Made by a program: the position numbers and the translations under genes. From an uncultured virus (IMG/VR IMGVR_UViG_3300049982_000266) (taxonomy: Duplodnaviria; Heunggongvirae; Uroviricota; Caudoviricetes), in IMG/VR virus record IMGVR_UViG_3300049982_000266: 64,000 bases of DNA. One strand, given 5' to 3'. The notes beneath the pieces were generated by a model. The model worked only from the letters and a program-made list of their open reading frames with translations. It was not told where the DNA came from and did no database searches. Of this stretch, positions 1,692 to 58,812 are shown piece by piece; within the stretch, counting starts at the first letter, position 1; each line of letters starts with the position of its first letter.

Positions 1692-1762
1692 GCGGTGCTC
1701 CTGGAGGTTGGGGCTCCGGGTTCGCTCCCCGCTGCCGTGAGAGCACCGTACACTGGCTTAGC
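1692..1762 (-). promoter_or_regulatory. Repeat module with leader hairpin
   Basis: GCTAAGCCAGTGTACGGT ... CGGG-GAGCGAA-CCCG (1717-1731) ... CCAGGAG. Confidence 0.8.
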
Positions 1763-1817
1763 GATGCTGGCAAACGAGCGGCCCGGAGGGAGTCCTCCGG
1801 GCCGTCGCCTGCTCGAC

Positions 1818-2036
1818 TCAGCGGTGCGCGCCGCCACGGGGGCGGAAAGCCACCCCGGCAGCCGCGAGCATCCGGTGCACGGAGCCGTACGCGCGGCCGT
1901 GCCGGTCGGCGAGCGCGCGGATGCTGGAGCCCGCCACGTAGGCGTTCACCATCTGGCGGGTCAGCGTGTCTCGGGCGTCGCCCTTCACACGCTCGCCGTG
2001 CTTCGCGGTGACGACGGGCTCGTCGACAGTGGTCAT
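1818..2036 (-). CDS. small helix-turn-helix DNA-binding protein (actinobacterial HTH_58-like)
   Basis: YVAGSSIRALADRHGRAYGSVHRMLAAAGVAFRPRGG. Confidence 0.8.
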   Translation of the reverse strand: MTTVDEPVVTAKHGERVKGDARDTLTRQMVNAYVAGSSIRALADRHGRAYGSVHRMLAAAGVAFRPRGGAHR

Positions 2037-2824
2037 GGTGCTCCTCCAGGGGTCGGGTCGCCGAAGCCGACGACCGTGTGTTCGGCGCGCCGGACGCGCC
2101 CCTCGGGGCCGTGTGCCCACGTGACGACGGGATCGCCGTCGGTCCAGTAGCCCTGCCGCCGCAGGTGCTCAGCACCCTGCTCGGCCAGGAGCGAGTCGAT
2201 CTCTGCCGTCCGGCCACGCACGGACGGGCACTCGAAGGTGAGGGTGCGCGGCCACTCCGAGCCATCCTCGGGCGACGGCCCGAGGGTCACGGTGATCGGG
2301 GGGAGCGGCGGCTGCGCCTCGGCCTCGCCCTCGTCGGTCGGGATCCACTCGACGCCGTTGCGCCGGACAATCACGGGCCGATCCCCACAGGCGGGCCGGT
2401 GAGCACCCCGGCGAGGTCGTGCACGTGGCGCCGGACGTCGCCCGCCATGCCCATCGGGCCGGTCAGCCCCACCGGGCCGCGCGGGCGCTCGACGACGTCC
2501 ATGCCGAGGCTGCGCAGGGCATCGAGGAAGTGCGCCTCCCACGGCCGGGGCTCGGTGTAGTCCTCGCCGGTGTCGCGCTCGCGGTCGATCCGCTCGCCCT
2601 CCTCGCGCTGCGTCTCGTGCGAGCGCTTCACGGCCAGCGTCACGGCCAGCACCTTCGCCTGCTCCAGCAGGTCGGCGGGCGTCGTCACCGGATGATCCTC
2701 TCGGCGTGCCCGGCCTCCCGGCACGGGCAGGGGACGCGCATCGTGCCGTCGACCCCGGAGCCCGAGCAGTCGCGGCAGTCGGCGCGGCGGCACTCGCGGC
2801 AGGGCTGCGGCCCGCCGACGCGGC

Positions 2825-3214
2825 TCACACCTCCGCCAGCGCGACGTCGCGGACGATGAGGGTCCCGGTGCGCGGCTTGTTGGGCGGGTAGAACATCGGG
2901 TCGCCGTCGGCGGCCACGAGGTCGGCCATCGTCGGCGGGTCCTCCAGCCACAGCGGGAAGCAGTACCCGCCGTCGGGGTGCGCGTGCGAGACGAAACTGG
3001 CGCCGACGAGCAGCGCTCGGTCGTCGCCCATAGAGACCTCGTCGGGCTGCGCGACGAGCCACCGGACGCTGTCCGGGCCGACGCACTGCGGCAGCGCCGA
3101 CAGCAGGATCCGCACCGGGTCACCGGTCGGCAGGACGATGCGCGCGACGCCGTCCTCGACGGTGTGCTCCAGCGGCTCGGGGCTGCCGCCGGGCGGCAGG
3201 AACTCGACGATCAC
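2825..3214 (-). CDS. hypothetical protein
   Basis: Protein-like segment from VIVEFLPP; overlapping start/stop with neighbours. Confidence 0.55.
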   Translation of the reverse strand: MIVEFLPPGGSPEPLEHTVEDGVARIVLPTGDPVRILLSALPQCVGPDSVRWLVAQPDEVSMGDDRALLVGASFVSHAHPDGGYCFPLWLEDPPTMADLVAADGDPMFYPPNKPRTGTLIVRDVALAEV

Positions 3215-3789
3215 GAACGCGCCTCGGCGGTGGTCTCCGTGACGGGCTTCGTGCGGGCCTTCACGCCCTGCCGGGTCGCCTGGCGCCGCTGACGACGCGG
3301 GGCGCCGCTCTCGCGGGCCTTGCGCGCCTCGTCGTACTTCAGGAGCCGGTCCATGACGTCGTGCGGGACCTCGACGCCGTCCAGGCGCAGGAGCCCGCCC
3401 TGGTTGTCGAGCATGACGTCGAGCAGCCGGTGCACGTACGTCGGGGTCGCGAGGTCGCTCGTGCGCGAGGTGCGCAGCACCCAGCAGTCGACGCAGCCCT
3501 CCCACGCGGTGCGCTCAGCCGACGGGTCGTCCTCGGTCGGGAGGCGCGGGACGGTGTAGACGACGTGCTCCCCCTTCAGGTGCTCGCGCTTGCAGTCGGC
3601 GCAGGGGACCGGGTGGGGCTGCTGCTGCTCGGGACCGGCGATCTCGACGGTGGTCTCGCCCGCCTCGACGGTCTCGACGACCTGCTCGGCCAGTGGCTCG
3701 ACGGTGCCGTCCGCGTGCCGGACCGCGACCTGTCCGGACTCGGTCACGAAGAGGGCGCCGCCCTCGGGTACTTCGACGGGGGTGGTCAT
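3211..3789 (-). CDS. hypothetical protein with two CxxC pairs
   Basis: 192-aa ORF, CADC and CVDC. Confidence 0.65.
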   Translation of the reverse strand: MTTPVEVPEGGALFVTESGQVAVRHADGTVEPLAEQVVETVEAGETTVEIAGPEQQQPHPVPCADCKREHLKGEHVVYTVPRLPTEDDPSAERTAWEGCVDCWVLRTSRTSDLATPTYVHRLLDVMLDNQGGLLRLDGVEVPHDVMDRLLKYDEARKARESGAPRRQRRQATRQGVKARTKPVTETTAEARS

Positions 3790-3840
3790 GCGCCCAGTCG
3801 ATCACGCCTGCCCCGACAGGATCAAGCCGACGCGCCGCCC

Positions 3841-5871: not shown

Positions 5872-6354
5872 TCACCACACGATCCCGGAGCCGCCGGAGG
5901 GACGCCGGACGATCGGCTGGCCGAGGTCCCAGTCGAAGCCCTGCGACGTGCTGGCGCCGAGCCGCCGCTGGAAGTCGGCGCGGGTGATCGGCGTCTCCCA
6001 CGTCGGGGAGCCGGGGGTGCGCCAGCCGTCGTCGTCGACCACGCGGACGTTCTCGCGCTGCTCCCACTGCGCGGGGGTCAGCAGCAGCCCGGCCTTCAGG
6101 GCGCACGCCGGGCACGAGTAGGGGTTCTCCTCGCCGACGGCGTCGTGCAGTCGCTCGGGCGCGGCATCGTCGGGCACGGCGCACTCGGGCTCGTTGCGCA
6201 CCGGCTCGGCGGCGTTCGCCAGGTCAGCCGAGCCCTTCGCGATCTCGCGGTGCTCGCCGTTCACCTTCGTGCAGCGCTGGCCGCAGAGCCCCGTGCCCTT
6301 CTGCGCCATGACGACGACCTCGGCGCCGCATACCCCGCAAGTCTCGCTAGCCAC
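5872..6354 (-). CDS. Zn-finger hypothetical protein
   Basis: CGVC, CGQRC, CPAC. Confidence 0.55.
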   Translation of the reverse strand: MASETCGVCGAEVVVMAQKGTGLCGQRCTKVNGEHREIAKGSADLANAAEPVRNEPECAVPDDAAPERLHDAVGEENPYSCPACALKAGLLLTPAQWEQRENVRVVDDDGWRTPGSPTWETPITRADFQRRLGASTSQGFDWDLGQPIVRRPSGGSGIVW

Positions 6355-6748: not shown

Positions 6749-7792
6749 CGGAGGCGCTTCGTGTCGCGGACGGTGCGGAGGTCGGGCAAGGGGTGCTCCT
6801 GTCGGGGTTCGCTCGGGTGGATCATGTTACGGGGGCGGGCAGGGCTCAGCCAGGGGACACGCCGCCCTTGCGCTCGCAGCGCTGGCAGCGGGCCTGCTGA
6901 GCGGTCTCGGCCTCGGTGTCCCGCCAGACGCGCGACATGACGCCGCCGTTGCGCTGGCCGCGCGGGGTGCTCGGCCGGGCCACGAAGGGCACGTCCACGC
7001 CGCAGAGCGTCTTCCAGTCGGCCTCGGGGTCGACGAGGTGCGCGCGGGTCGAGACGACCTGCGCCGACAGGGAGCCGGAGGTCGCGCGGCCCCACGAGAC
7101 GGCCACGAGGTCAGCCACGGGCGTCGTCCGGCACGAGCGGGTCGACGCGAGGGCGCAGCGGGCCGACGGAGCCGTCCTCGTACACCTCCTGGATGCCGCC
7201 CTGGACGCGCACGTCTCCGGGCTGCTGCGGCCGGGGCTCGGCGTCGCGCTCGAAGCCGTCGAGGTCGGCGCTCACGCTCTCGGCATGGGAGCGCAGCGCG
7301 GCGACGTCGGCCTCCAGTCGGACGATCTTCGCCTCGGCCTCGCCGAGCGCAGCGACGTGCTGGCACTCGATCGGGTCGGCGTCGCAGCCGCACGGGCTGC
7401 GGAAGCGGACCTCGTCGCCGACGGCCTTGCGGCTGACGAAGCGCTCGACCTCGTCCAGCGTCGAGGCGACCTCGTCTCCCCACGTGACGCGAGGAGCGCC
7501 CGGTCGGGGCTCGGGCTGGCCGTTGAGCAGCGTGCGCAGCCGGTGCAGCAGCAGTCGGGCCATCGCGCCGGTCTCGGTGGGGGTCATCGGCGGTCCTGTC
7601 GGCGGTCGAGGCGGTCGACGATGCGGCGGCTGTCGTCGGCGTCCAGGCGGGTGTGCTGGCGGCAGTGCTCGCCGTCGTGGCCGGAGATCGGCTGGCGGCA
7701 GCCGCGCTCGGCGCACTCGGGGATGACGACCTCGCGGCTGCGGGCAGGGCGCTCCTCGCGGGGCGGCTGCCAGAACACGCGGGACAGGCTGC

Positions 7793-8284
7793 TCATCGGG
7801 TCTTCCTCTCGGCGGCGCGGCGCTGGCGCCGGTTCATGCCCGGCAGCACCGGGGCGGTCTTGGGGACGGGCTGGCCGAGCATCTTCATCACCTCGGCGTC
7901 AGGCAGGTGGAGCAGCGCGCGCTCCAGGATCGACTCGCGGAGACCGGTCCAGGCGCGCGTCGGGGCGGCGAGCCACCCGTCGCGGGGGATCACGACGCCG
8001 ACGTAGCGGTCGACCTTGCCGTACCTCGGGGTGCGCTCGACGACCATGCCGAGCGCGTCGAGGTTCCAGGCGTGCGTGCCGCCGAAGGCGCCGTTCTCGG
8101 CGTAGACGACGCCCTCGACGTAGGCACCCTCGCCGCGCCAGGCGTTCGTCCAGCACTCGCCGGGCTCGCCGTCGAACGGGACGGAGGAGCGGCGCATCTC
8201 GACGCCGTGGCGGATGACGAAGGCGGTGAGGCGGCGCCGGGCCTCCTCGGAGACCCGGTACTCCTCGGGGGTGAGCCCGATCAT
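7793..8284 (-). CDS. putative transglutaminase/papain-fold protein
   Basis: GECWTNA...YVEG...HAWN Cys-His arrangement. Confidence 0.5.
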   Translation of the reverse strand: MIGLTPEEYRVSEEARRRLTAFVIRHGVEMRRSSVPFDGEPGECWTNAWRGEGAYVEGVVYAENGAFGGTHAWNLDALGMVVERTPRYGKVDRYVGVVIPRDGWLAAPTRAWTGLRESILERALLHLPDAEVMKMLGQPVPKTAPVLPGMNRRQRRAAERKTR

Positions 8285-8424
8285 CGGGCGGCGGCCAGAC
8301 GCTCGGAGACCTCGGCGGCCTCCTCGGCGCAGTCGACGTGCGCGGGCATCCCGGCCGAGCGGGCGCCGGGCTCGTTGACCTCGTCCTCGCTCATGCGGCC
8401 GGTGCAGATCGAGCAGCGGTACAT

Positions 8425-8487
8425 GGTGGTCCTCCTGATCTTCGGGGTCGCTCTCCCCTTCGGCAGTCAGCGTACACCACCTTAGCC
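8425..8487 (-). promoter_or_regulatory. Repeat module with leader hairpin
   Basis: GCTAAGGTGGTGTACGCT ... GGGG-AGAGCGA-CCCC (8444-8458) ... CAGGAGG-ATG (47-aa ORF 8281..8424). Confidence 0.8.
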
Positions 8488-9857: not shown

Positions 9858-10199
9858 TCACCGGTAGCGCTCCCGGTTGATCTGCTGGTCGGCCTTGCCG
9901 TCGACCACGAGGCGGCCGGTCAGCCAGTCCTCGACCATCTTCGTGCGCCGGATCTCGCCGGGCGTCGCGAAGATGATGTGCTGCACGGTGCCGGTCTCGG
10001 CGCCTTCGGCCTTCAGGTCGGCGGCGCTCGGCTCGACGAGATCGCCCTCGCGGTCGACCTGCATCCCGGACAGCGTGACGCGCCCGCCCTGCTCGGAGCA
10101 GGTCACGTCCTTCAGCAGCACCGTGCGGCGCCTGCCGAGGTGGTCGGGGTAGGAGACACGCTCGAAGGTGCCCACTAGAACGGCGGGTCGGTCTGCCAC
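9858..10199 (-). CDS. hypothetical protein
   Basis: 113-aa protein-like ORF. Confidence 0.6.
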   Translation of the reverse strand: MADRPAVLVGTFERVSYPDHLGRRRTVLLKDVTCSEQGGRVTLSGMQVDREGDLVEPSAADLKAEGAETGTVQHIIFATPGEIRRTKMVEDWLTGRLVVDGKADQQINRERYR

Positions 10200-10387
10200 T
10201 GGACGGCCGGGGCGCTCCAGGGGTCTTCGGCGCGCAGGGCGGCGGCGCGCTCCGGGCTGAGGCGGGCGGGCGGGGTGTCGTCGGCGACGTCGGCCAGGGT
10301 CGGCCGGTCGTTGTACGCCTGCTCGCCGTGCGCGCGCTCGAAGGCGGCGGCGCCGTCCACCGTGGAGGTGAAGTCGTCGCGGTGCAT

Positions 10388-10463
10388 GTGGTGCTCCTGT
10401 CGATCTTGGGGCCGGTCGCTCACCGGTCCCCAGAGACTAAGCCCGTGTACGCCGATCCGTCAA
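10388..10463 (-). promoter_or_regulatory. SigA-type promoter with inverted box in spacer, plus leader hairpin
   Basis: TTGACG-N18-TAGTCT; plus-strand CTAAGCCCGTGTACG lies in the spacer; CCGG-TGAGCGA-CCGG (10412-10426); CAGGAG. Confidence 0.8.
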
Positions 10464-12802: not shown

Positions 12803-13069
12803 TCATCGTGCGCGGGCCTGCGCAGTCGCGGGGGCGCGCTCGGCGGAGATGACGCCGCAGCCGAGCCGGACCTCGGTGGTGTGCGTGCCGGACACGACGC
12901 TGACCACGAGGTCGTCGAAGTCGTTGACGTAGATCGCGGTGACGGCGCCGACGGCCGACCGGGTCGCGTAGCGCTCAGTGTTGGTCACCTCGGCGACGTG
13001 GCCGAGCAGCGGCGTGATCGCCAGGACGTTCGCTGCGATCTGGAACTGCGAGACGGTGGGGATGCTCAT
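12803..13069 (-). CDS. hypothetical protein
   Basis: 88-aa ORF directly after a repeat module. Confidence 0.65.
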   Translation of the reverse strand: MSIPTVSQFQIAANVLAITPLLGHVAEVTNTERYATRSAVGAVTAIYVNDFDDLVVSVVSGTHTTEVRLGCGVISAERAPATAQARAR

Positions 13070-13140
13070 GTCGGTCGGGCTCCTGGTACTCGGGGAGGTC
13101 GCTCACCTCCGGGTGTGCCAACACCGTACACCACCTTAGC
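13070..13140 (-). promoter_or_regulatory. Repeat module with leader hairpin
   Basis: GCTAAGGTGGTGTACGGT ... GGAGG-TGAGCGA-CCTCC (13094-13110) ... CCAGGAG. Confidence 0.8.
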
Positions 13141-15265: not shown

Positions 15266-15631
15266 CTAGGGGGTCTCCTCGGGGGTGCAGGCGAGCAGGG
15301 TCTCGACCTCGCCGCGCTCAGCGGCGGCCCAGCCCTGGTCGAAGGGCACGAGGCGCACGTGGTCGAGCGTGTCGGTGTCGGCGACGACGAGGGCGTCCAG
15401 GTGCTCCAGCCCGGCGTCGGCGGGCTCCACGCACTCGCGGCCGTAGGTGGCCGAAGCGACGGCCAGCGGGTCGGCGGCGGGGCCAGCAGGGGGCAGGGCG
15501 CCCCATCGGTGGTCGACGACGCCGACGGCAGGGACGGCGAGCAGCGCCAGCAGCATCGCGGCGGGCATGAGGGCGCCAGGCAGGTCGGCGCGGCGCAGGC
15601 GGGTCACCGGGCGCTCGCGGGTCTCGCTCAT
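15266..15631 (-). CDS. membrane-anchored/secreted small protein
   Basis: N-terminal hydrophobic stretch; follows repeat module. Confidence 0.6.
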   Translation of the reverse strand: MSETRERPVTRLRRADLPGALMPAAMLLALLAVPAVGVVDHRWGALPPAGPAADPLAVASATYGRECVEPADAGLEHLDALVVADTDTLDHVRLVPFDQGWAAAERGEVETLLACTPEETP

Positions 15632-15707
15632 GGTGTGCTCCTGGTGCTCGTGGGGTCGCTCTCCCCGGTGGATGACAGAACTGTAGCACGGCGTCCAGCG
15701 GCTTAGC
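15632..15707 (-). promoter_or_regulatory. Repeat module with leader hairpin
   Basis: GCTAAGCCGCTGGACGCCGTGCTACAGT ... GGGG-AGAGCGA-CCCC (15652-15666) ... CCAGGAG. Confidence 0.8.
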
Positions 15708-18859: not shown

Positions 18860-18929
18860 CGTGGGCTCCTGTCGTGGTGGCGGGGTTCGCTCCCCCTGCC
18901 GATGAGAGAACTGTACCACAGTGCTCAGC
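18860..18929 (-). promoter_or_regulatory. Repeat module with leader hairpin
   Basis: TGTGGTACAGTTCTCTCATCGG ... GGGG-GAGCGAA-CCCC (18882-18896) ... CAGGAG. Confidence 0.8.
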
Positions 18930-19501: not shown

Positions 19502-19570
19502 GTGGTGGCTCCTGGTGCTCGGGGCGCTCGCTCTGCGCCGATAGAAGGACAGTAGCACGGTCTCTAGCGG
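19502..19570 (-). promoter_or_regulatory. Repeat module with leader hairpin
   Basis: GTGCTACTGT ... GGCGC-AGAGCGA-GCGCC (19523-19539) ... CCAGGAG. Confidence 0.75.
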
Positions 19571-24755: not shown

Positions 24756-24833
24756 TGAAGGGGCTCCTGGTGCTCGGTGGGACTCGCTCGGTCCCGATGA
24801 CAGAACAGTAGCACACCCGTACACCGGCTTCAC
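24756..24833 (-). promoter_or_regulatory. Repeat module with leader hairpin
   Basis: TGAAGCCGGTGTACGGGTGTGCTACTGT ... GGGAC-CGAGCGA-GTCCC (24779-24795) ... CCAGGAG. Confidence 0.8.
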
Positions 24834-28751: not shown

Positions 28752-28825
28752 GTCGGCTCCTGGAGGTTCGGGGCCGTTCGCCCGGCCCGATACGAGAACT
28801 GTAGCACAGCGTCCACGGGCTTAGC
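28752..28825 (-). promoter_or_regulatory. Repeat module with leader hairpin
   Basis: GCTAAGCCCGTGGACGCTGTGCTACAGT ... GGGCCG-GGCGAA-CGGCCC (28771-28788) ... CCAGGAG; TAA is the upstream stop. Confidence 0.8.
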
Positions 28826-30201: not shown

Positions 30202-30276
30202 GGTCTCTCCTGTGCTCGTGGGGTCGTTCGCCCGACCCGATGCGAGGACGGTAGCACACCCGTACACCGGCTTAGT
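30202..30276 (-). promoter_or_regulatory. Repeat module with leader hairpin
   Basis: ACTAAGCCGGTGTACGGGTGTGCTACCGT ... GGGTCG-GGCGAA-CGACCC (30221-30238) ... CAGGAG; TAA is the upstream stop. Confidence 0.8.
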
Positions 30277-32695: not shown

Positions 32696-32770
32696 GTCGT
32701 GGCTCCTGTGCTCAGTGAGGGGTCGCTCGCCCCCGTGGTAGGGCAACCGTACACCACCCCACCTTTAGGG
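32696..32770 (-). promoter_or_regulatory. Repeat module with leader hairpin
   Basis: GTGGTGTACGGT ... GGGG-CGAGCGA-CCCC (32719-32733) ... CAGGAG. Confidence 0.75.
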
Positions 32771-32818: not shown

Positions 32819-33191
32819 GGAGGGCGGACGGCTCAGCCGTACAGCGCCCTCACTGCGGTCGCGAGGCACGTCGGGCAGTCCCGGCGCTGGACGTCGCAGC
32901 GGCACGCCTCGCGGGCCAGCGTCAGCCCGGCAGAGCGTGCGGCGCGGGCGACCTCGAAGGCGGCCAGGTCGAGTCGGAAGGTGCGGGGGAGGTCGGCGGT
33001 CGTCAGGGTGGACGCAGTCAGGCTCATGGCCCCCTCCAGGTGACGCGGGTCTCGCGCTGAAGCCACTGTGCCACGAAGGGTGAACCTTGACTAGAGGGTT
33101 GCAGCACGCAGTTCGCTGCGAGGTGCGGGCAGCACGAAGCCCTCGTGTCGCAGCCGGGGGAGGGAGCGAACCTCCTGGTCCCGGACCGGGG

Positions 33192-35427: not shown

Positions 35428-35503
35428 TGCTGCTCCTGGTGCTCGGGCCGGTCGCTCTCCGGCGTGATGACAGAACGGTAGCACACCCGTCCACGGACTT
35501 AGC
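35428..35503 (-). promoter_or_regulatory. Repeat module with leader hairpin
   Basis: GCTAAGTCCGTGGACGGGTGTGCTACCGT ... GCCGG-AGAGCGA-CCGGC (35447-35463) ... CCAGGAG; TAA is the upstream stop. Confidence 0.8.
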
Positions 35504-35950: not shown

Positions 35951-36011
35951 GGGGGCTCCTGAGGGTGGGCGCCGGGTTCGCTCCCCGGCGTGTGAAAGAA
36001 CTGTAGCACAG
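35951..36011 (-). promoter_or_regulatory. Repeat module with leader hairpin
   Basis: TGTGCTACAGT ... CGCCGGG-GAGCGAA-CCCGGCG (35970-35990) ... CAGGAG. Confidence 0.8.
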
Positions 36012-36115
36012 TCAGTCGACGCGCAGGGCCAGCGCCACGAGATCCGCCACGAGGACGGCCAGGGCGCCGAGCCCGACGTCGGCCGGGTGGCTCCTCAGCC
36101 ACCCGGCCGCGCGGC

Positions 36116-36946: not shown

Positions 36947-37063
36947 GTCTGCTCCCGTGCTCTCTGCGGGTTCGCTCGACCCGATGAGAGAACTGTAGCA
37001 CAGTCCCGGACGGGCGTACCCCGGCTTACGAGGATCGCTAAGCCGAGGTACGGTTCCGTACAG
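36947..37063 (-). promoter_or_regulatory. Repeat module with leader hairpin and inverted box pair
   Basis: TGTGCTACAGT, CGGGT-CGAGCGA-ACCCG (36967-36983); inverted boxes 37015-37028 and 37039-37052. Confidence 0.8.
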
Positions 37064-43290: not shown

Positions 43291-43294
43291 GCAC

Positions 43295-43327
43295 GACGCC
43301 CCCCACCTTCTCGGCGGGGGGCGTCGG
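43295..43327. terminator. bidirectional hairpin terminator
   Basis: CGACGCCCCCC...GGGGGGCGTCG between convergent genes. Confidence 0.65.
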
Positions 43328-43329
43328 CG

Positions 43330-44591: not shown

Positions 44592-45088
44592 TCGCGCGCC
44601 TCGCGGACGTCGGCGACCTGCCAGCGGGAGCCGTCGGTGACGAGGTCGACGAGCAGCGTCTCCTCGCTGTTGAGCGTCACCGCGACCGACGCGGTCGTCT
44701 CGCCGACGTCGACCGCCGAGGCGCCGACGACGTTGCCGACGGGCAGCCGGTCGGTCTCGGTGAAGTGCAGCATCTCGGCCAGCGCCGGGGTGCAGCGCTC
44801 GGCCATCTCGCGGTTCCAGATGGCACGCTCGGTGTCGGTCATCGGCGGCGTCGCGAAGATCGACATGAAGCCGCGAGCGGCGTCCACGACGACCTCCTCC
44901 TCGCCCGGCTCGACGACCGGCACCGGGCTCTCGACCGGGGCTGCCGACGGACTCGGCTCGCGCTCGACCGTGATAAGGCGCTCCACGGCGGGCTCCCGGT
45001 ACTCGGGCTCACCGCCGAGGATCCAGGCGGCCAGGAGTACCCCGAGCACGGCGGCGAGGAAGGCGGCGACGCGCCAGCGGCTACGCAT
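44588..45088 (-). CDS. bitopic membrane protein, possible VirB8/TcpC-like
   Basis: N-term TM, NTF2-like C-term (..LLVDLVTDGSRWQVADV); operon position. Confidence 0.5.
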   Translation of the reverse strand: MRSRWRVAAFLAAVLGVLLAAWILGGEPEYREPAVERLITVEREPSPSAAPVESPVPVVEPGEEEVVVDAARGFMSIFATPPMTDTERAIWNREMAERCTPALAEMLHFTETDRLPVGNVVGASAVDVGETTASVAVTLNSEETLLVDLVTDGSRWQVADVREARE

Positions 45089-49480: not shown

Positions 49481-49830
49481 GGGGTCTCCTGGATGCGCAC
49501 GCGGCTGGTGGTGACGCGGTGCGCAGTCGGCTTCGCGGGGCGGCTGGCGCGGACCTCGGCGCGCACGGTCTGGAGCAGGCTCCGGACGGTGCGGTCGCTG
49601 TCGACGTAGCCCATGACGGCGTAGGTGACGAGGGTCGCGATGACGGCCTCCCACACCGGGACTCCGACGCCGAGCACGGGCACGATCGCCTTGACGGCCA
49701 GGATGCCGAGGAAAACGGCGATCCAGACCCCGTAGGCGACGTAGCGCGCGTGCCAGGGCAGCGGGGCTCCGGCGGGCCCGAGCCAGATGGCCCGGATGCG
49801 GAAGACGTCGTCGTCGGTACGAAGCCTCAC
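49477..49830 (-). CDS. TcpE/VirB3-like conjugation membrane protein
   Basis: RTDDDVFRIRAIWLGP...LPW..RYVAYG, two TMs, directly upstream of VirB4. Confidence 0.7.
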   Translation of the reverse strand: MRLRTDDDVFRIRAIWLGPAGAPLPWHARYVAYGVWIAVFLGILAVKAIVPVLGVGVPVWEAVIATLVTYAVMGYVDSDRTVRSLLQTVRAEVRASRPAKPTAHRVTTSRVRIQETP

Positions 49831-50075
49831 TGGATGATGATGCCGGTCAACTCGTCGGCGAACGAGTAGAGGATCGGCCCGGCGGCGATGACGACGAGCC
49901 CGATGAGCACGAGCGTCATGGTCGAGGCGGCGTCGGACACGCGGCCCTTGCGGCTGCTCGCGATGATGCCGATGCCGATGACGAGGCACAGGATCGGGAC
50001 GATGAGGCGGACGCCCGCCTCGACGATCCCGTCGGTGTTCAGCGTCGCGGCGAGGGTGATGCTCTCGTGGATCAC
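49827..50075 (-). CDS. TcpD/VirB2-like small two-TM protein
   Basis: 82 aa, two hydrophobic helices, first gene of operon. Confidence 0.6.
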   Translation of the reverse strand: MIHESITLAATLNTDGIVEAGVRLIVPILCLVIGIGIIASSRKGRVSDAASTMTLVLIGLVVIAAGPILYSFADELTGIIIQ

Positions 50076-50145
50076 GGGTCCTGCTTCCTGTAGTGGGAAC
50101 GCCCGGCTCGCTCGGCCGGGTCGTGGATCTACGCTAACACAGCGC
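50076..50145 (-). promoter_or_regulatory. Promoter + leader hairpin heading the conjugation operon
   Basis: TGTTAGCGT ... CCCGGC-CGAGCGA-GCCGGG (50102-50120) ... CAGGA. Confidence 0.75.
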
Positions 50146-53493: not shown

Positions 53494-53781
53494 TCACGGC
53501 TCGACCATCTCGTCCTCGGGGGCGCGGACCGGGAGCCCGCGCTGGAGGGCGACGGCGACCCGCTCGGCGCGACCGAGCCCGCCCCACACGCCCTCGGGTT
53601 CGTCGTTCGCCAGGGCGTACTCCAGGCAGGCGTCCCGGATCGGGCAGGGGGCGCCGTCGTCGGGGCCGTTGCACACGCGCTTCGCGCGCATGATGACCTG
53701 CTTCCCGCCCTGCTCGGGGTAGAAGATCTCGGGGTCGGTGGAGGCGCAGACGGCGCTTCCCCAGTCGGGCGTGTCGATCAT
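53494..53781 (-). CDS. whiB: WhiB-family transcription factor
   Basis: AVCASTDPEIFYP...AKRVC...CPIRDACLEYAL...GVWGGL...ER. Confidence 0.9.
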   Translation of the reverse strand: MIDTPDWGSAVCASTDPEIFYPEQGGKQVIMRAKRVCNGPDDGAPCPIRDACLEYALANDEPEGVWGGLGRAERVAVALQRGLPVRAPEDEMVEP

Positions 53782-55154
53782 GCCGTCGGCTCCTCGCTGC
53801 TCGGGTACGGACCGTCGACCTCGCCCATGACGGCGACCTCGGCGGCGTGCTGCTGTGCCTTCGCGAGAGCGGCGGCTGCCCGCTCGCGCTTCTCGCGCTC
53901 GGCCTTCGGGATCGGCCGGATCGCGATGCTGCCCTGCGTGCCCTCCCGCTGCGGCTTGTGGAGTTCCTTCAGCGGACCGCGCAGCCCGTCGGGAGTCAGC
54001 GCCCACTCGACGACGGCGCGCTCCCACGCCTCCTCGTCGAGCACCGCGCGGGGCTTGTCGCGGCCGTAGCGGATGCCCTCGTACTCGCCGAAGGCGATGC
54101 CGTCCACGAGCGCGGCGGCGGCCTTCTGGCCCTTGTCGGCGGCACCCTTCGCCGAGCGGTGCTCCATGTAGTCCCGCAGCACTGCGGCGATGCGCTGCTC
54201 GTCCGGCGTCGAGCCGAGCAGCGTCCAGGACTCCGGGCTGCGCCCGTGTCGCTCGGCCTGCGGCACGTTCCAGCAGTAGTCGCGGGCGAAGCAGTAGCGC
54301 GCGCAGATCGGGCTCAGCGCCGGGCCGGGCTCGTCGCGCGGCTGCTCGATCCCGAGGTCGATCTGCGTCGCGAGCGTGATGAGGTCGTCGACCGCGCGCT
54401 CGGCGTACTCCAGGTTCCAGGGGCGCTCGAAGACGACGTCGCGGCCGTCGGCGCGCTGCACGTAGACGATGCGCACGACGCGGACGTAGGCACCCTCGCG
54501 GTGCTTCGACAGGGCGTAGGTGAACGCCTGCTTCCACTCGCTCTCGGGCGGGCCGTCGTCGGTGATGACCGACCACTTGTAGTCGCCCGCCGTCTTCAGG
54601 TCGTCGAGCGAGCCCATGATCGGGTCGTACTCGTCGAAGCGGCTCTCGCCGATGCCCTCGATCTTCACGGGCTGCTCGAACTCGCGCCACGGGTACAGCC
54701 GCTTGCGCAGGGCGGCGACGGAGTCGTGGATCAACTGGCCCATGTACGCGGCGCGCTTGTCGGTCCACGAGGCGTAGAAGTCCTCCGGCGGGCGCTCGCG
54801 GTACTGCACCTGGCGGCGGCACGCGCTGTGGTCGCTGGCGCTGACCTTCACGTCGCCGAACTCGCTGGCGCGGGCGGCGCGCCCGGCCTGGTTCTCGGCG
54901 TCCTGCTGGCGCAGGTCGTCACCGAGGGTGTTGCGGTGCCCGGCGATCGCCTGCTCGACGAGCAGGTCGACGAGGTCGCGCCGGTAGCGGCGGCAGCCGG
55001 TGCGCTTGCACGCGCCCTGCTGCTGCGGCCCGGCGTGCTCGTGACGGCCCGCGCCGCACACGCACGGCTCGGTGGACGGGCCGTACATCGGCGGCCGGGA
55101 GAGGATGATCTTGACGCGCTCGCGCGCCTCGTCGATCGGCAGACGGGTGGGCAC
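53778..55154 (-). CDS. PD-(D/E)XK exonuclease (RecB/Cas4-like)
   Basis: SAS...CRRQ...GQLIH...E...FD...DDLKT...QAFTYA...C..YC...C. Confidence 0.8.
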   Translation of the reverse strand: MPTRLPIDEARERVKIILSRPPMYGPSTEPCVCGAGRHEHAGPQQQGACKRTGCRRYRRDLVDLLVEQAIAGHRNTLGDDLRQQDAENQAGRAARASEFGDVKVSASDHSACRRQVQYRERPPEDFYASWTDKRAAYMGQLIHDSVAALRKRLYPWREFEQPVKIEGIGESRFDEYDPIMGSLDDLKTAGDYKWSVITDDGPPESEWKQAFTYALSKHREGAYVRVVRIVYVQRADGRDVVFERPWNLEYAERAVDDLITLATQIDLGIEQPRDEPGPALSPICARYCFARDYCWNVPQAERHGRSPESWTLLGSTPDEQRIAAVLRDYMEHRSAKGAADKGQKAAAALVDGIAFGEYEGIRYGRDKPRAVLDEEAWERAVVEWALTPDGLRGPLKELHKPQREGTQGSIAIRPIPKAEREKRERAAAALAKAQQHAAEVAVMGEVDGPYPSSEEPTA

Positions 55155-55237
55155 TGGACTCGCTTCCTGTGGGGATGGCGCCGGTCGCTCACCGGCGAGA
55201 GGGACAGTAGCCGGGGGGTCCGACAGACCCCCCGGCT
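55155..55237 (-). promoter_or_regulatory. Terminator-like hairpin, -10 and leader hairpin
   Basis: 12-bp stem 55209-55237 abuts TACTGT; CGCCGG-TGAGCGA-CCGGCG (55179-55197). Confidence 0.75.
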
Positions 55238-55242
55238 CGGGC

Positions 55243-56973
55243 TCAGCCGACCATCACCGGCCCGGTGTGCACCTGCACCGAGCCGACGAGGAAGCCGCGC
55301 TCGGCGGCGTAGGAGACGGCCGCCTCGCGCATCGTGAAGTACGGGCCGGTCGGCTTGCGGGTGGCCGGGTCGACCGCGACGTGCTTCGTCTCGACGAAGC
55401 CCTCGGTCACGGCGACCGGCTCGGCGACCGGCTCGGCGACCGGCTCGGCGACCGGCTCGGCCGGAGCGACCGGCTGGACGACCGGGAGGTCGCCCTGCTC
55501 GTCGAGGTAGGACGCGAGCGTGCCGACGTCCAGCCGGACCTTCGCGCGGGTCACCGCGACGTAGGCGAGCATGAGGTCCGCCGGGCTGATCTTGTCGGAC
55601 TCCAGCGCGAAGTCGGCGATGCGCACGGCGTCCCACTCGCGGCCCTTGCTCTTGTGCGCGGTGGAGATGACGACGTCGGCGTACTTCTCGTCCGACGCGC
55701 TCTTCAGCACGCCGAGGAGCGTCTGCGCGCCGCGCTCGTCGATCAACTTGACCATCGTCGCGAGGTCTCCGGTGGTCTCCTCCTCGGAGACGTACTGCTG
55801 CACCATCTTCCAGTCGACGAAGGCGGCCAGGTCAGCGTGCTGCGTGCCCTTGCCCGCCATGAGGTCCAGGGCCGCCTCACAGAACTTCACGCTCTCGGTC
55901 GTGCCGCCGACGAGCGCGGCCTTGCGACCCCGCTGCTGCTCGGCCAGCAGGGCGGCCAGGCACCCGGCGTTCGTGCGGCACAGGATCGCGTCGCTGTCCT
56001 GAGCGCCGGGGACGTCGAGGGCGACCCGGACGCTCGGGACCTTGTCGAAGCCCTCCAGGCGCAGCGGCGCGTCGAGCACGTTGAGGAAGACGTTGGCCGT
56101 CTCGGCGACGGCCGGGCCGAAGCGGAAGGACTGCGAAAGCGTGCGGACCATCGTGCCGCGAGCGGCGAACTTCGCCATCGCGTCGACCGCGCCGGTGAAG
56201 CCGTAGATCGCCTGCGCACTGTCGCCGACGAGGATGACCTGGAGGTGCCTCTGCTGCTCGACGACGGCGGCGATGACCGGGTTCGCGTCCTGCGCCTCGT
56301 CGAAGAGGAGCACGTCGCCGTCGATCTTCGGCGAGGACAACTGCCACATCTTCAGGTAGTGGTCGTGCGTGAAGCGGACGAAGCCGGTCTCGCCCTGGAG
56401 GTCGGCCCACACGCGCTGAGCGTGCGGCAGGAGCGCCTTCGCGATCTCCTGGTTGATCGGGCCACGGACGGCACCGCCGCGCGGGCCGGGGGCGTCCAGA
56501 CCCTCGATCGCCGGGAAGTGATGCGTGCCGATCTCGGTGTCGGCCGAGCGGCAGAAGCCAGCGACACCGGCGAGCACGTGGCGAGCGAGCGTGACGTTGC
56601 TCAGCATCCGGTGCTGGTCGCCGAAGCCCTTGACCGTCATCGGCGACAGGCGCAGCCACTTCGCGACCTCGGACGGCCACTGGCGGTTCGCGCGGAGCCG
56701 GGCGGCGTAGCGCTTGCCGACGGCCTGGAAGGCGAGGGAGTGGGCGGTGCCCGCGCGGACGTTCACCGGGAACGAGCCCTTCGCCTCGTCGGCGATCGCG
56801 CGGTTGAAGGCGACGTAGGTGAAGCGCTTGCTCGGGGCGGCCTCGGCCAGCAGCCGGAGCGTCGAGGTCTTGCCGGTGCCCGCGCCCGCCTGGATGACGA
56901 GGTTGTCGCCGGTGAGGAAGGCGTCGCGGATCGCGGCCTGCTCGGCAGTGGGGGCGAAGGTCGTGGCGGTCAT
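55243..56973 (-). CDS. UvrD/REP-like SF1 helicase
   Basis: AGAGTGKT, FDEAQD, VGDSAQAIYGF, LSQSFRFG, STAHKSKGREW, YVAVTRAK. Confidence 0.9.
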   Translation of the reverse strand: MTATTFAPTAEQAAIRDAFLTGDNLVIQAGAGTGKTSTLRLLAEAAPSKRFTYVAFNRAIADEAKGSFPVNVRAGTAHSLAFQAVGKRYAARLRANRQWPSEVAKWLRLSPMTVKGFGDQHRMLSNVTLARHVLAGVAGFCRSADTEIGTHHFPAIEGLDAPGPRGGAVRGPINQEIAKALLPHAQRVWADLQGETGFVRFTHDHYLKMWQLSSPKIDGDVLLFDEAQDANPVIAAVVEQQRHLQVILVGDSAQAIYGFTGAVDAMAKFAARGTMVRTLSQSFRFGPAVAETANVFLNVLDAPLRLEGFDKVPSVRVALDVPGAQDSDAILCRTNAGCLAALLAEQQRGRKAALVGGTTESVKFCEAALDLMAGKGTQHADLAAFVDWKMVQQYVSEEETTGDLATMVKLIDERGAQTLLGVLKSASDEKYADVVISTAHKSKGREWDAVRIADFALESDKISPADLMLAYVAVTRAKVRLDVGTLASYLDEQGDLPVVQPVAPAEPVAEPVAEPVAEPVAVTEGFVETKHVAVDPATRKPTGPYFTMREAAVSYAAERGFLVGSVQVHTGPVMVG

Positions 56974-57052
56974 CTCGTGCTCCTGGTCTGTCGGTGTGGG
57001 CCGGTCGCTCACCGGTTGAGAGAACCATAGCACAGCCGTACCTCGGCTTAGC
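56974..57052 (-). promoter_or_regulatory. Repeat module with leader hairpin
   Basis: GCTAAGCCGAGGTACGGCTGTGCTATGGT ... CCGG-TGAGCGA-CCGG (57001-57015) ... CCAGGAG. Confidence 0.85.
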
Positions 57053-57077
57053 GACTTCCGGCCGGAAAGATGCCGAA

Positions 57078-57123
57078 GAGCCGGGCTCGGCGTCGCCTTC
57101 CCCTTGCGACATGAGCCCGGCTC
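57078..57123 (-). terminator. hairpin terminator after RecT-like gene
   Basis: GAGCCGGGCTC...GAGCCCGGCTC inverted repeat. Confidence 0.55.
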
Positions 57124-57157
57124 CCCAGTGCACCGGCCCCCGCGAGGGCCGGTCGAT

Positions 57158-58753
57158 CTACCTCGGGAGGGCGTCCCCGAGCATGGCGCGCACGTCAGCG
57201 ACGACGCTCGTGCCGAGCATGTCGTACGCCTGCGCCGCGCCGGTCTTGCCGCTCCCGCCGAGCCGGTCGACGGCGCTCTTGCGGTACTGCGCGACGAAGC
57301 GCAGTGCCTCCTCGGCCGTCCAGTCCTTCACTTCGCGCTTCAGGTGCGCGCGCTGACGCTGCGTCATCTTCGAGACCGTCGTGCCGTGGATCGTCGCCAG
57401 GACGTCGATCTCGTCGAGCAGCCACGTCCGGCCCTGCTCCGGGTCGACGGGCGGCGGACCGGCCGGGTCGTCGGCGGGCACGAGCGGGCTGGAGTTGACC
57501 GGGTCGTCGGAGCGGGGCTCCTCCGGGGCGCTCTCCGGCTCGCTGGCGGGCTCGGGGACCACCTCGGCCTCGACGGTGCCGTCCTCGTGCTCCGCGCCGG
57601 GAGCGGCCTCCTGAGCGGCCTCGACGGGCTGCTCGGCGGCGGGCGCCTCAGGTGCGGCCGGAGCCTGCTCCTCGGTGAACGGCTGCCCGCTCTGGACGGC
57701 GCCAGCGGCGGCGCGCAGGAAGGCGTCGAGGTTGGTCTCCTCGCCCTTCAGCCCGCGCACCGGCGTGATGACGCGGCGCTCCGGCGGGCCGGTCTCCTCC
57801 CACGCCGCAAGGATGACCTGGCGACGGGCGGCGGGGTCGGCGCTCTCAGTGAAGGCGGCGAGCACGATCTTGCGGATCTGCTCGGCCTTCGCCGGGAGGA
57901 ACGGCTGCGGGGGCTCCGGCGCGGCGGCGGGCTGCGACAGGGTCTCGACGACCTCGCCGTCGATCACGGAGCCGTCCTCGTCGACCAGCGCGCCCAACTC
58001 CTCGGCGGTGTAGTGCGCACCGGCCAGCACCTCCTCAGCGCCTTCACGGACGACTTCCGAGATCGCGCGGGCCTTCGCCATCGCCTCCGGGTAGGTCTCC
58101 CAGTTGCCGGGCTTGTCGTTGCGGGTGCGGGCGCGCACGGTCCACTTGCCGTCGGAGCCCTGCTGGTAGGAGTCGACGAGCCCGGCGCGCACAGCGCGGT
58201 CGATCGTCCAGGTCGCCTCGAAGGTCCAGTCGGGGTCGTCGCTGCGGATGAGGTACGCGGTCGCCTTCAGGTCGCCGCCCTCGACCGAGCCCTCGACCTT
58301 CATGCGCATCTTGTGGCCCGCCCGGCGCACGAGCGCCGACATGAGCGCGGCCGACGCCGTCGGCTTGCCGTCGATCACGTGGATGCCGGTGATCGCGGCC
58401 ATCGGCGCGATGCCCAGCATGAGCCCGTACTCGACGGCGTAGAGCACGTTCGCCGGGGCGCCCCGGTACTGCGACGGGAGCAGGTTCGCGTTCGCCAGTT
58501 CGCGGGCGTAGCGGATGCGGGCGTTGAGGCTGAGGTTCGGGCTCGACATGGTCGGCATGAGGGCGCTGCCGGGCGTCACCTCGTCGGCCTTCGGCTCGAA
58601 GCCCGCGTTCGCAGTGCGACCGCCGGTCGAGATCGTGCCGTCGGAGATGGTGCTGCCGATGATCTGGCCCTCGGCGATGCGGTCGGTGGGCGTGCCGTTC
58701 GCAGGGTGGTCAGCGCCGGGTGCGGGCGCCTGGTCGGTCGGGACGTCGGTCAC
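57158..58753 (-). CDS. recT: RecT-like ssDNA annealing protein with long C-terminal extension
   Basis: LLPSQYRGAPANVLYA..YG.MLGI.PM.A...IHVIDGKP...W.TYPEAM..ARAIS...R. Confidence 0.8.
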   Translation of the reverse strand: MTDVPTDQAPAPGADHPANGTPTDRIAEGQIIGSTISDGTISTGGRTANAGFEPKADEVTPGSALMPTMSSPNLSLNARIRYARELANANLLPSQYRGAPANVLYAVEYGLMLGIAPMAAITGIHVIDGKPTASAALMSALVRRAGHKMRMKVEGSVEGGDLKATAYLIRSDDPDWTFEATWTIDRAVRAGLVDSYQQGSDGKWTVRARTRNDKPGNWETYPEAMAKARAISEVVREGAEEVLAGAHYTAEELGALVDEDGSVIDGEVVETLSQPAAAPEPPQPFLPAKAEQIRKIVLAAFTESADPAARRQVILAAWEETGPPERRVITPVRGLKGEETNLDAFLRAAAGAVQSGQPFTEEQAPAAPEAPAAEQPVEAAQEAAPGAEHEDGTVEAEVVPEPASEPESAPEEPRSDDPVNSSPLVPADDPAGPPPVDPEQGRTWLLDEIDVLATIHGTTVSKMTQRQRAHLKREVKDWTAEEALRFVAQYRKSAVDRLGGSGKTGAAQAYDMLGTSVVADVRAMLGDALPR

Positions 58754-58812
58754 TGCTGCTCGCTTCCTATGGGGTGCCGGTCGCTCACCGGCTGAGGTGG
58801 ATCACGCTACGC
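58754..58812 (-). promoter_or_regulatory. Promoter + leader hairpin
   Basis: TAGCGT ... GCCGG-TGAGCGA-CCGGC (58776-58792) ... TAGGAAG. Confidence 0.75.

Follow-up and report, generated by a model that had tools for sequence, protein, structure and literature searches.

The question raised by this locus is why one small hairpin, with a fixed loop on changing stems, should recur in front of gene after gene. The window, which is the whole 64,000-nucleotide stretch analysed here, is a phage-related mobile element from soil. It carries 18 such hairpins on its minus strand, one fronting each of 18 gene groups; the GAGCGA-loop leader hairpin is probably an undescribed RNA tag that lets one factor handle all tagged messages jointly. 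The sequence-only reading had listed these 18 hairpins, and they are real: a regular expression for a stem of at least 4 bp with the loop NGAGCGA, GAGCGAA or GGCGAA returns, on the minus strand of the window, the 18 listed sites and no others, plus 3 on the plus strand, against a chance level of 0.77 (sd 0.90, maximum 4) in 200 dinucleotide shuffles. The minus-strand stems are perfect at 18/18 coordinates (4-7 bp), and the stem sequences quoted earlier are correct on rechecking. The loop is NGAGCGA at 13 sites, GAGCGAA at 3 and GGCGAA at 2; the two variants retain the GCGA core in a shifted register, with no free drift. The placement of the hairpin between the -10 box and the Shine-Dalgarno (SD) sequence, also proposed earlier, holds throughout, as a TAnnnT hexamer ends 6-13 nt upstream, GGAG, GGAA or GAGG lies 8-17 nt downstream, and a start codon follows 19-27 nt downstream in 18/18 window sites. 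In an unbiased census of all perfect hairpins, GAGCG/NGAGCGA tops the loop classes of the sense strand in the window (A) and in two other elements, B and C.

All window genes share a single strand and form long trains of operons; the hairpin sites are all on the minus strand. GCCGG-TGAGCGA-CCGGC (58776..58792) leads a RecT-like gene (57158-58753, PHROG), with a 5-bp stem, the -10 box TAGCGT ending 11 nt upstream and GGAA 8 nt downstream. CCGG-TGAGCGA-CCGG (57001..57015) stands before a UvrD-like helicase gene (55243-56973, Pfam), with TATGGT 8 nt upstream and the SD 17 nt downstream. In the leader of gene 53778-55154, the -10 box TACTGT ends 6 nt upstream of CGCCGG-TGAGCGA-CCGGCG (55179..55197), so this hairpin would sit right at the 5' terminus of the predicted RNA. 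A block of conjugation-like genes is headed by 49827-50075, whose leader carries CCCGGC-CGAGCGA-GCCGGG (50102..50120; TAGCGT 10 nt upstream). Next come CGGGT-CGAGCGA-ACCCG (36967..36983) before gene 36116-36946, CGCCGGG-GAGCGAA-CCCGGCG (35970..35990; z = -2.81) before 35705-35950, and GCCGG-AGAGCGA-CCGGC (35447..35463) before 35146-35427 and the AAA ATPase operon. GGGG-CGAGCGA-CCCC (32719..32733), leading 32462-32695, follows the class-B promoter GGTGTACGGT. The loop variant GGCGAA is found in GGGTCG-GGCGAA-CGACCC (30221..30238; leader of 29911-30201) and GGGCCG-GGCGAA-CGGCCC (28771..28788; leader of 28380-28751 and a 990-aa gene). GGGAC-CGAGCGA-GTCCC (24779..24795) precedes 24453-24755, GGCGC-AGAGCGA-GCGCC (19523..19539) precedes 19226-19501, and GGGG-GAGCGAA-CCCC (18882..18896), extended by an outer GGC/GCC with an A bulge, precedes 18539-18859. 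The remaining sites are GGGG-AGAGCGA-CCCC (15652..15666; leader of 15266-15631), GGAGG-TGAGCGA-CCTCC (13094..13110; leader of 12803-13069), CCGG-TGAGCGA-CCGG with an outer GGGG/CCCC (10412..10426; leader of 10175-10387; z = -3.65), GGGG-AGAGCGA-CCCC (8444..8458; leader of 8281-8424) and CGGG-GAGCGAA-CCCG (1717..1731), which leads a 27-codon ORF (ATG 1691) that is ATGA-coupled to gene 1093-1611.

A degenerate copy lies on the minus strand at about 6808..6815 (approximate coordinates, counted by hand from the intergenic listing); it reads CGAGCGAA, then CCCC and AGGAG, lacks the 5' stem arm and has a TAACAT -10-like box upstream. Two copies are reverse-oriented. At 33159..33175 (-) the gene-sense strand reads GGAGG-TTCGCTC-CCTCC, 17 nt past the stop of gene 33192-33479, and at 60898..60912 (-) it reads GAGG-TTCGCTC-CCTC, within the 272-nt gap upstream of gene 59247-60776. 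No promoter or SD serves either copy on the plus strand, and the codon pattern of the plus-strand ORF at the 33159 copy is that of an antisense frame. Not every promoter of the class found before the hairpins is followed by one; exceptions are those of the leaderless genes at 498 and 19829, that of the leader at 40663, and those of both cassettes of a related fragment, L029.

That the stems compensate, as the earlier reading had stated, is confirmed by covariation. In a gapless alignment of the 13 NGAGCGA window sites, pairing reaches 82.1% of 78 cells, where shuffles give 51.0 +/- 4.3 (0/500 as high); with all 18 sites being paralogues of a single element, this control overstates their independence. 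Pairing is intact in 52/52 cells of the inner four pairs, 6/6 pairs show changes on both sides, and slid controls of the same alignment reach 27-49%. In a wider set of 65 distinct sequences drawn from five elements, the paired share of cells is 93.6%, versus 67.7% after shuffling (0/500 as high), although this alignment leans towards structure because it was fitted to the model; 60/65 sequences have a [T/C/A/G]GAGCGA or GAGCGA loop. Wobble pairs give no strand signal, the non-canonical cells being 10 of G.U type versus 11 of A.C type. Run over the window, a covariance model trained on the 13 sites yields no additional strong copy; beyond the listed sites its top hit reaches 16.2 bits. The GAGCGAA and GGCGAA variants score poorly under it, and two variant sites could be recognised in its output, 35970 at 18.6 bits and 18882 at 16.0 bits. 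Since the window stems vary (11 distinct inner 4-bp sequences) while the loop stays constant, selection on the hairpin itself, beyond copying, is indicated, and the alignments argue that hairpin structure and loop are both under selection.

A search beyond the window recovered the motif in at least six further phage-like IMG/VR contigs, among them one of 87,321 bp with 24 such hairpins. B, C and a third element, G, hold 21, 24 and 10 copies against 0.68, 0.80 and 1.3 expected (40 shuffles each). The GAGCGA hexamer is constant in seven or more elements with divergent nucleotide sequences, whose stems, promoters and ribosome sites vary: the -10 boxes are TACAGT in A, TATCAT in B, TACACT in C and TACGNT with a GCTAAGCGGGTG spacer in G, and the SD contexts of A, B, C and G include CCAGGAGC, GGAGGGAG, GGAGACCCC and GACAGGAGAC. 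In G407, a close relative of the window element, orthologous leaders keep the hairpin with changed stems. Window site 36967 corresponds to GCGGG-AGAGCGA-CCCGC at 33108 (+), the syntenic partner of 28771 is CCGGGG-AGAGCGA-CCCCGG at 102789 (-), and 57001 probably pairs with 77791 (stem GCGGG). Outside A, the whole 15-mer and not just the loop may be conserved, and the copies may have arisen by recent duplication; CGGG forms the inner stem of 19/19 copies in B and 16/26 in C.

The orientation of the hairpin matches gene direction, divergent pairs included, and each plus-strand copy, of which B, C and G have two apiece, is served by its own promoter and/or SD on the same strand. The virion block of B (4.6-27.7 kb: terminase, portal, capsid, tape measure) and that of C (46.5-67.8 kb) contain zero copies. 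In C, 9/17 copies with an SD and start downstream have no TAnnnT within 16 nt; about half of the C copies precede internal cistrons without a promoter, several directly after a stop codon and with stems of 7-12 bp. The hairpin-SD distance is constantly short across elements (0-17 nt), and in B the hairpin begins about 5 nt past the -10 box and abuts the SD. The motif is tied to the ribosome site and not to the promoter alone. From its orientation, its absence from virion modules and its promoter-less internal copies, action at the RNA level near the ribosome site is therefore most likely.

We tentatively favour, at somewhat less than even chances, a factor-read tag governing the translation or stability of early messages. 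Three points of this are our inference: action as RNA, binding of the loop by a factor, and an effect on translation or stability. The tag would act in cis, marking non-virion, early-type messages in a family of actinophage-like elements. The hairpin would form at or within a few bases of the predicted transcript 5' end, which we placed solely from the -10 boxes, and a few bases upstream of the SD; in some relatives it would also form between cistrons. The stem would need only to pair, and the (N)GAGCGA loop would be read by sequence by one putative trans-acting factor, phage- or host-encoded. The element could thereby control translation initiation and/or decay of all tagged messages jointly, for example by shutting off or protecting early genes. 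The orientation of the copies fits an RNA-level role. The element-wide RNA-level regulon suggested by the sequence-only reading thus keeps its basis in real leader hairpins, a conserved loop and gene-following orientation, whereas its antitermination option fits poorly.

The operator hairpins of phage translational repressors, and early-mRNA regulators, offer a comparison in the MS2 coat/replicase operator, T4 RegA and RegB. As in the model proposed here, a single protein recognises a small RNA feature, at or beside the ribosome sites of numerous early messages, and switches these off together; RegA and RegB, however, read linear sequence, and the MS2 operator is a single site containing the start codon. 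No protein common to A, B and C was found at the BLAST/phmmer level. Only two families are common to several hairpin-bearing elements, an HTH/small-terminase-like 252-aa protein (in A, C, F and G, not in B or G409) and WhiB (in A, C and G), and neither looks like an RNA binder.

The missing reader would be explained if the hairpin were a boxB-like site, where the nascent hairpin recruits a phage N-like peptide or a host Nus factor that lets polymerase resist terminators or Rho through each early operon, because N-like peptides are too short and divergent for BLAST. In lambda, boxB has a 5-nt loop (GAAAA or GAAGA), occurs at 2-3 sites per genome with a boxA partner, and has no link to the SD. 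The window hairpins resemble it as short early-leader hairpins with a small purine-rich GNR..A loop directly behind early-type promoters in one-strand operon trains; in boxB it is the loop, not the stem, that is read by a small protein, and the GAGCGA loop could similarly adopt a GNRA-like fold with extruded bases. However, the loop here is 6-7 nt, there are 10-24 sites per genome (18-24 per element, against 2-3), the promoter-less C copies stand ahead of internal cistrons, and antitermination has no need for a constant short distance to the SD. BoxA-like sequence is not enriched (15 matches vs 12.6 expected). The analogy drawn earlier is therefore a poor fit; we consider lambda-type antitermination improbable, and less likely than a factor-read translation or stability tag. 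The failure to find a reader is also what one would expect of a passive cap, 5'-terminal or intercistronic, that shields the message from RNases dependent on the 5' end (RNase E and RNase J) and screens the ribosome site from the sequence upstream with no trans factor, its loop being conserved only because GAGCGA would fold into a compact, putatively GNRA-like loop, G-N-R-(NN)-A. The hairpin would lie at the extreme 5' end, starting 6-13 nt past the -10 box in A, and the long stems on promoter-less C copies are as expected for processing or stability elements; 5'-end stem-loops are stabilisers according to Emory 1992 and Hambraeus 2002, as cited in a review (PMC7509114). Yet a protective cap would not need one fixed hexamer over seven elements with differing stems, nor would its variants have to keep the GCGA core. 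Many window stems are only 4 bp (-6.5 to -9 kcal/mol) and fold no better than shuffles, z ranging from +0.14 to -3.65 and reaching -2 or below in only 7/18. A recognition site accounts more readily for weak hairpins with a constant loop than a purely physical block does, and we find the passive cap rather unlikely.

It is also conceivable, though decidedly improbable, that stop codon, promoter, hairpin and SD form a mobile or recombinogenic module at the DNA level whose hairpin, as DNA or RNA, is mainly a recombination hot spot or terminator, the repetition reflecting cassette spread. The model is the PeSL of the T4-type phages RB49 and phi1, a unit of stop codon, strong sigma-70-like promoter, stem-loop, SD and start (Arbiol et al. 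2010, PMC2839356). PeSLs cluster in regions of small, non-essential early genes, and in one subclass the -10 box precedes the stem-loop (PMC2839356). The window cassette repeats this intergenic layout, with a GCTAAG motif holding the TAA stop of the upstream gene (read by eye in several window copies, e.g. 513, 28771, 40699), and it precedes unrelated ORFan genes; B and C hold many near-identical 15-23-mer copies. However, PeSL stem-loops are polyG/polyC, take five positions relative to the promoter and act as terminators, and are not known to have a conserved loop (PMC2839356), whereas the window hairpin has a fixed position and an invariant loop hexamer, and no U-tract follows any of the 18. 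The variety of inner stems in A, the tracking of gene direction and the retention of the hairpin in orthologous A/G leaders of differing sequence also speak against cassette spread. The PeSL analogy made earlier thus stands for the layout and fails for the loop. A kissing-loop scheme, in which the reverse copies would present UUCGCUC on the gene strand and pair through 6-7 bases with GAGCGA(A) leader loops as an antisense regulator or sponge, is very unlikely. Both copies (33175-33159 and 60912-60898, sharing GAGG-TTCGCTC-CCTC) are intergenic and without plus-strand signals, and TTCGCTC is the perfect complement of GAGCGAA and, with a G.U wobble, of GGCGAA. But there are only two such sites, and the plus-strand total, 3 against 0.77 expected, is weakly significant. 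The 60898 copy is no more stable than shuffled sequence (z = +0.11), identical pairs of 15-mers turn up readily by chance in DNA of 73% GC (an estimated >100 such pairs), and B, C and G show no reverse copies lacking their own promoter or SD.

The loop had not been recognised as any described element, and neither Rfam nor literature searches gave a match for the hairpin or a published GAGCGA-loop leader hairpin. The window hairpins resemble the SAS/ESAS repeats of cluster K mycobacteriophages and cluster EF Microbacterium phages, actinophage-specific motifs that recur, all in the same orientation, where translation of 10-19 mostly non-structural genes begins, and that a host or phage factor may read (PMC3203893, PMC11373665, PMC7302621). 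In the same sources, SAS is the SD-region 13-mer GGGATAGGAGCCC itself, the EF ESAS keeps one hexamer well, GTAGAG, at the centre of weakly kept flanks, and the cluster K ESAS combines a SigA promoter with an operator-like 15-17 bp inverted repeat of conserved sequence. As described there, SAS and ESAS differ from the window hairpins in having no covarying stems around a fixed loop, and the SAS 13-mer matches the window once, against 2.0 expected. The window itself contributes the widest stem diversity (11 inner stems), the loop variants, a relative with orthologous leaders (G407) and the two reverse copies.

The leader hairpin with a GAGCGA loop is a family that spans several elements. In the window, the sequence-only reading had claimed 18 such hairpins on the minus strand, placed between the -10 box and the ribosome-binding site. 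Both parts of this claim hold: sequence inspection and a mechanical search (stem of at least 4 bp; loop NGAGCGA, GAGCGAA or GGCGAA) found a perfect stem at each site, and the search of the minus strand returned exactly these 18 and none further, against a chance expectation of 0.77 ± 0.90 copies (maximum 4; 200 dinucleotide shuffles). The loop is 6-7 nt long at 18 of 18 sites. A TAnnnT hexamer ends 6-13 nt upstream of each hairpin, and therefore the RNA is predicted to start 0-7 nt ahead of the stem, promoters being assigned by consensus only; a start codon lies 19-27 nt downstream. The extended -10 box TGnTAnnnT occurs at 14 promoters of the window, 11 with a hairpin, two leaderless and one with a plain leader. 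The hairpin at 1717 stands ahead of a 27-codon ORF (1608-1691); the stop of this ORF and the start of the gene at 1093-1611 overlap as ATGA. Two copies of reverse orientation (33159-33175 and 60898-60912) have the 15-mer GAGGTTCGCTCCCTC in common on the sense strand; both are intergenic, each without its own promoter or Shine-Dalgarno (SD) sequence, and their loops are complementary to the leader loops.

The other elements were found in IMG/VR by patterns of two common stem-loop versions plus an SD; the patterns contained the loop, so that the first copy in each element is biased, while further copies and the flanks are unbiased. Element B (3300031178_000002; 80.6 kb, 70% G+C) has 21 copies, and two further contigs are at least 99% identical to it; C (3300031912_000871; 87.3 kb, 72% G+C) has 24, D (3300045974_000352; 14.6 kb) two, E (3300036806_000040; 12.8 kb) one, and F, a provirus (2932604667_000002; 126.9 kb), four in the 12 kb read. 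G, or G407 (3300049259_000177; 114.6 kb), has ten, nine of them in full cassettes; this IMG/VR viral contig is the nearest relative of the window that was found, with 17 proteins in common (27-75% identity) and the same promoter type. Relatives have a Micromonospora- or Streptomyces-like appearance, G408 is a provirus of an isolate genome, and known hairpin copies now number roughly 90. Shuffling predicts 0.7-1.3 copies per element. The motif-bearing elements are divergent in nucleotide sequence, -10 boxes and SD contexts. What characterizes the hairpins of the window is a G/C-rich stem of at least 4 bp, on the sense strand, 0-17 nt before an SD, in many copies and at non-virion genes; these features were checked also on B, C, D, F and G, and the virion blocks separately. 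The motif may reach beyond actinophages. Isolated pattern matches in coding or low-GC surroundings were discounted as probably due to chance. Two related AT-rich phages (IMG/VR contigs L089 and L099, 34-35% GC) carry the G/C-only hairpin GGGG-(A/T)GAGCGA-CCCC before an SD and ATG at about 6001-6030, the free loop base differing between them.

The stems had been described as varying in sequence and always pairing, and the covariation analysis agrees. Thirteen window copies with an NGAGCGA loop align gap-free, and 82% of their 78 stem cells are paired; shuffling lowers this to 51%, and none of 500 shuffles reaches the observed value, a test that overstates the independence of these paralogues; slid controls reach 27-49%. 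Both members of each of the six stem pairs vary, all 52 cells of the inner four are paired, and the window holds 11 distinct inner 4-bp stems; in B the inner stem is invariant in 19 of 19 copies. Orthologous or syntenic leaders of the window and G retain a hairpin whose stem differs (CGGGU/ACCCG against GCGGG/CCCGC, and GGGCCG/CGGCCC against CCGGGG/CCCCGG). Across 65 distinct aligned copies, 93.6% of cells are paired against 67.7% after shuffling, in an alignment fitted to the model. Their loops are TGAGCGA (39), CGAGCGA (13), AGAGCGA (6), GGAGCGA (1), GAGCGA (1) and others (5), and ahead of GAGCGA, B and C have mostly U, F and G have A, and the window has a mixture; this base is free, and it therefore need not pair with the final A. 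When all perfect hairpins (stem of at least 5, loop of 4-9) are counted, this loop is the commonest sense-strand class in the window, B and C. Folding energy is weak evidence for the window hairpins: z is -2 or lower in 7 of 18, and several 4-bp stems are worth just -6.5 to -9 kcal/mol. The case for the hairpins is thus built on recurrence and covariation, not on stability. A wobble test gave no strand signal, with 10 G.U-type against 11 A.C-type cells.

The setting of the copies speaks to the level at which they act. The hairpin always has the orientation of its gene; where copies lie on the plus strand (six, in B, C and G), a promoter or SD of their own accompanies them there. In each element the hairpin keeps a short, constant distance from the SD, at 8-17 nt in the window and about 8-12 nt in C, while in B it adjoins the SD. 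In C, 17 copies are followed by an SD and start, and for 9 of them no -10 box lies within 16 nt; several of these promoter-less copies directly follow a stop codon, with stems of 7-12 bp; the element therefore goes with the cistron, not with the promoter. No copies lie in the virion block of B (4.6-27.7 kb; terminase, portal, major head and tape measure by PHROGs) or in the homologous block of C (46.5-67.8 kb). Orientation, SD distance, the promoter-less copies and the absence from virion blocks together point to a hairpin that acts as RNA, at the ribosome site.

We tentatively propose, giving it a little less than an even chance, that the hairpin is a factor-read tag that controls translation and/or stability of early messages. 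On this reading, which has the best support, the loop would be read by sequence, and the stem would be needed for structure only. The footprint of the 30S subunit is roughly -35 to +19 around the start; the hairpin would be placed inside this covered region, and a bound factor could therefore affect initiation, either blocking or helping it. At the same time, the hairpin could cap the 5' end. RNase E, RNase J and RppH are reported in actinobacteria. The review PMC7509114 describes 5'-terminal stem-loops as stabilizing bacterial mRNAs, in line with a cap or insulator that works purely passively, its loop being conserved for the sake of folding; we regard this account as rather unlikely. Pairing of the leader loops with the two reverse copies is very improbable. 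One host or phage factor may recognize the GAGCGA loop, folded in a GNRA-like way, as a 'self, early' mark, with the reverse copies as decoy or kissing partner, a proposal that we hold to be doubtful. If true, it would amount to a genome-wide RNA regulon, with a logic like boxB/N or RegA and structurally new, that covers all non-virion messages in widespread temperate actinophages and phage-conjugative hybrids, and the reverse copies would provide built-in tuning of the regulon in the window.

Two known systems offer further alternatives. The hairpin shares the logic of the lambda nut site, in which boxB is a hairpin with a 5-nt GNRA-like loop (GAAAA or GAAGA); boxB-like antitermination is nevertheless improbable in view of the loop, the copy number, boxA and the linkage to the SD. 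The window loops have 6-7 nt instead of 5, and nut sites are few per genome, one per early operon, whereas there are 18, 21 and 24 hairpins in the window, B and C. A boxA-like 12-mer with up to 3 mismatches has 15 matches against 12.6 ± 3.3 expected; by eye, none overlaps any of the 18 hairpins, and some are in or near leaders or intergenic stretches, at 35991-36002, between the -10 box and the hairpin at 35970-35990, and at 60998-61009. The nut system has an N-like arginine-rich peptide as cognate, and no small protein common to the elements was found here; such peptides escape sequence searches. A mainly DNA-level cassette of the PeSL (promoter-stem-loop) type is also quite improbable. Its layout, defined in PMC2839356 as a stop codon, sigma-70-like promoter, stem-loop, SD and start in one intergenic unit, is matched by the window cassettes. 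PeSL cassettes, however, have neither the fixed loop nor the fixed position of the hairpin, and their stem-loop is a terminator or attenuator; no U-tract lies 3' of the window hairpins. PeSL cassettes also recombine, shuffling genes between close relatives; G407, at its level of protein identity, is too distant to compare.

The factor-read tag calls for a reader, a trans factor that binds the loop. No protein is common to the window, B and C; what B and C have in common is for the most part virion genes, and beyond these an integrase, a lysin, a DUF5131 protein and a single small protein of unknown kind. The window, C, F and G carry a 252-aa HTH protein similar to small terminase subunits, which was not found in G409 or B, the latter being 64% complete, and WhiB is present in the window, C and G. 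Both were set aside as readers, since they accompany the motif in just some of the elements and resemble DNA-binding proteins; their distribution may reflect only kinship. The window is a fragment, so the reader gene could lie outside it, and the reader could just as well come from the host. Host chromosomes, however, showed no use of the hairpin: the exact 15-mer CGGGTGAGCGACCCG has 46 matches in 38 of 201 genomes (three of the 38, G016, G025 and G033, are unpublished and contribute to the tally only) against 20 for a reversed control, and none of 12 inspected matches has a leader-like context. When 401 sampled Actinomycetes genomes were searched with a combined promoter and loop pattern, there was 1 match, and the reversed control had 13.

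The loop had not been recognized as a described element, and Rfam bears this out, with no match at gathering score in the whole window; under relaxed filters on 35380-37060 (three leaders), the only match is a chance miRNA (E = 0.53). No description of the motif was found in full-text searches of the literature outside subscription journals and supplements. SAS/ESAS of cluster K and EF actinophages have the same setting. Their make-up differs: the one is a 13-mer in the SD region, the other a promoter that bears an inverted repeat of conserved sequence. The 13-bp SAS GGGATAGGAGCCC has one window match with 2 mismatches (plus strand, 40305-40317; 2.0 expected), which lies at none of the 18 leaders, and ESAS has 17-bp inverted repeats of conserved sequence around the promoter, in contrast to the sequence-variable stems of 4-7 bp in the window.

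Currently, almost no post-transcriptional control has been described in actinophages, among them the ones that serve in Streptomyces and Mycobacterium genetics and in therapy, and the known repeated start-site motifs (SAS/ESAS) are still without a function. The motif is small, sharply defined and covarying, and several unrelated phages each carry it on 10-24 early messages. It provides an experimental handle, as a 15-nt pull-down bait or a portable reporter tag, and work with it could uncover a new regulator that binds RNA, or a new way in which early genes are shut off or protected. It also aids annotation, since it shows where genes truly start and which transcription units are early in phage DNA rich in ORFans.

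The window, probably from a soil metagenome, has 72-75% G+C throughout and about 123 tightly packed genes by our own GC3-based calls, all but one on the minus strand and most of them ORFans; megablast with 20-kb pieces gave no close match in phage and plasmid collections. Its genes include a RecT-like protein, a UvrD-like helicase, a replication-initiator-like protein, WhiB and an AAA ATPase. A conjugation-type block at 40700-49830 (TcpF/VirB4-like ATPase, CD3337-like membrane protein, M23 peptidase and an FtsK-like protein with an N-terminal HNH domain) resembles the conjugation apparatus of Gram-positive plasmids and is syntenic with a block of a Nonomuraea plasmid; its proteins have no tblastn match in G407. 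The window is possibly a phage-conjugative hybrid. Neither the AAA-ATPase locus of Microbacterium gorillae nor the Nonomuraea and Streptomyces plasmids with a related conjugation ATPase have a hairpin copy (best covariance-model score, R1, 16.5 bits). An ARAGORN call of tRNA-Leu(CAG) at 61167-61254, within a low-complexity Gly/Ser/Pro-rich ORF (61049-61660), is probably false.

The conserved promoter GCTAAGCC-N-GTGTACGG(-TGTGCTACAGT), for example at 28806-28835, 30256-30285, 19829-19860 and 498-513, is also found in G404, G407 and L029, a related 3.5-kb fragment that has the same promoters in two cassettes and no hairpin. A promoter-only pattern had no match in viral contigs and 10 in metagenome contigs, L029 being the sole relative; an earlier -10 pattern gave 10 unrelated matches, including a phage of 66% GC with the same -10 box and no hairpin. 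In G407 the conserved promoter element looks operator-like, as it occupies the spacer that separates the -10 box from a TTGCNC -35 box, and in several copies its TAA is, by eye, the stop of the upstream gene (513, 28771, 40699). Leaderless genes at 484-513, 19814-19840 and 43015 (plus strand) have their ATG 6-8 nt after the -10 box; the last of these, 43015-43290 (91 aa, no family), is the sole plus-strand gene. Three related palindromes, ACCTCTAGTCGAGGGT, ACCTAAGGTCGAGGGT and CCCTCTAGTCAAGGTT, at 42700-43000 and 33085-33100, flank the divergent region and precede the gene at 32833-33027, and are candidate repressor operators. Finally, GATGATCTAG stands directly ahead of the starts of the genes at 21122-21628 (21629-21645) and 40700-42604 (42605-42625).
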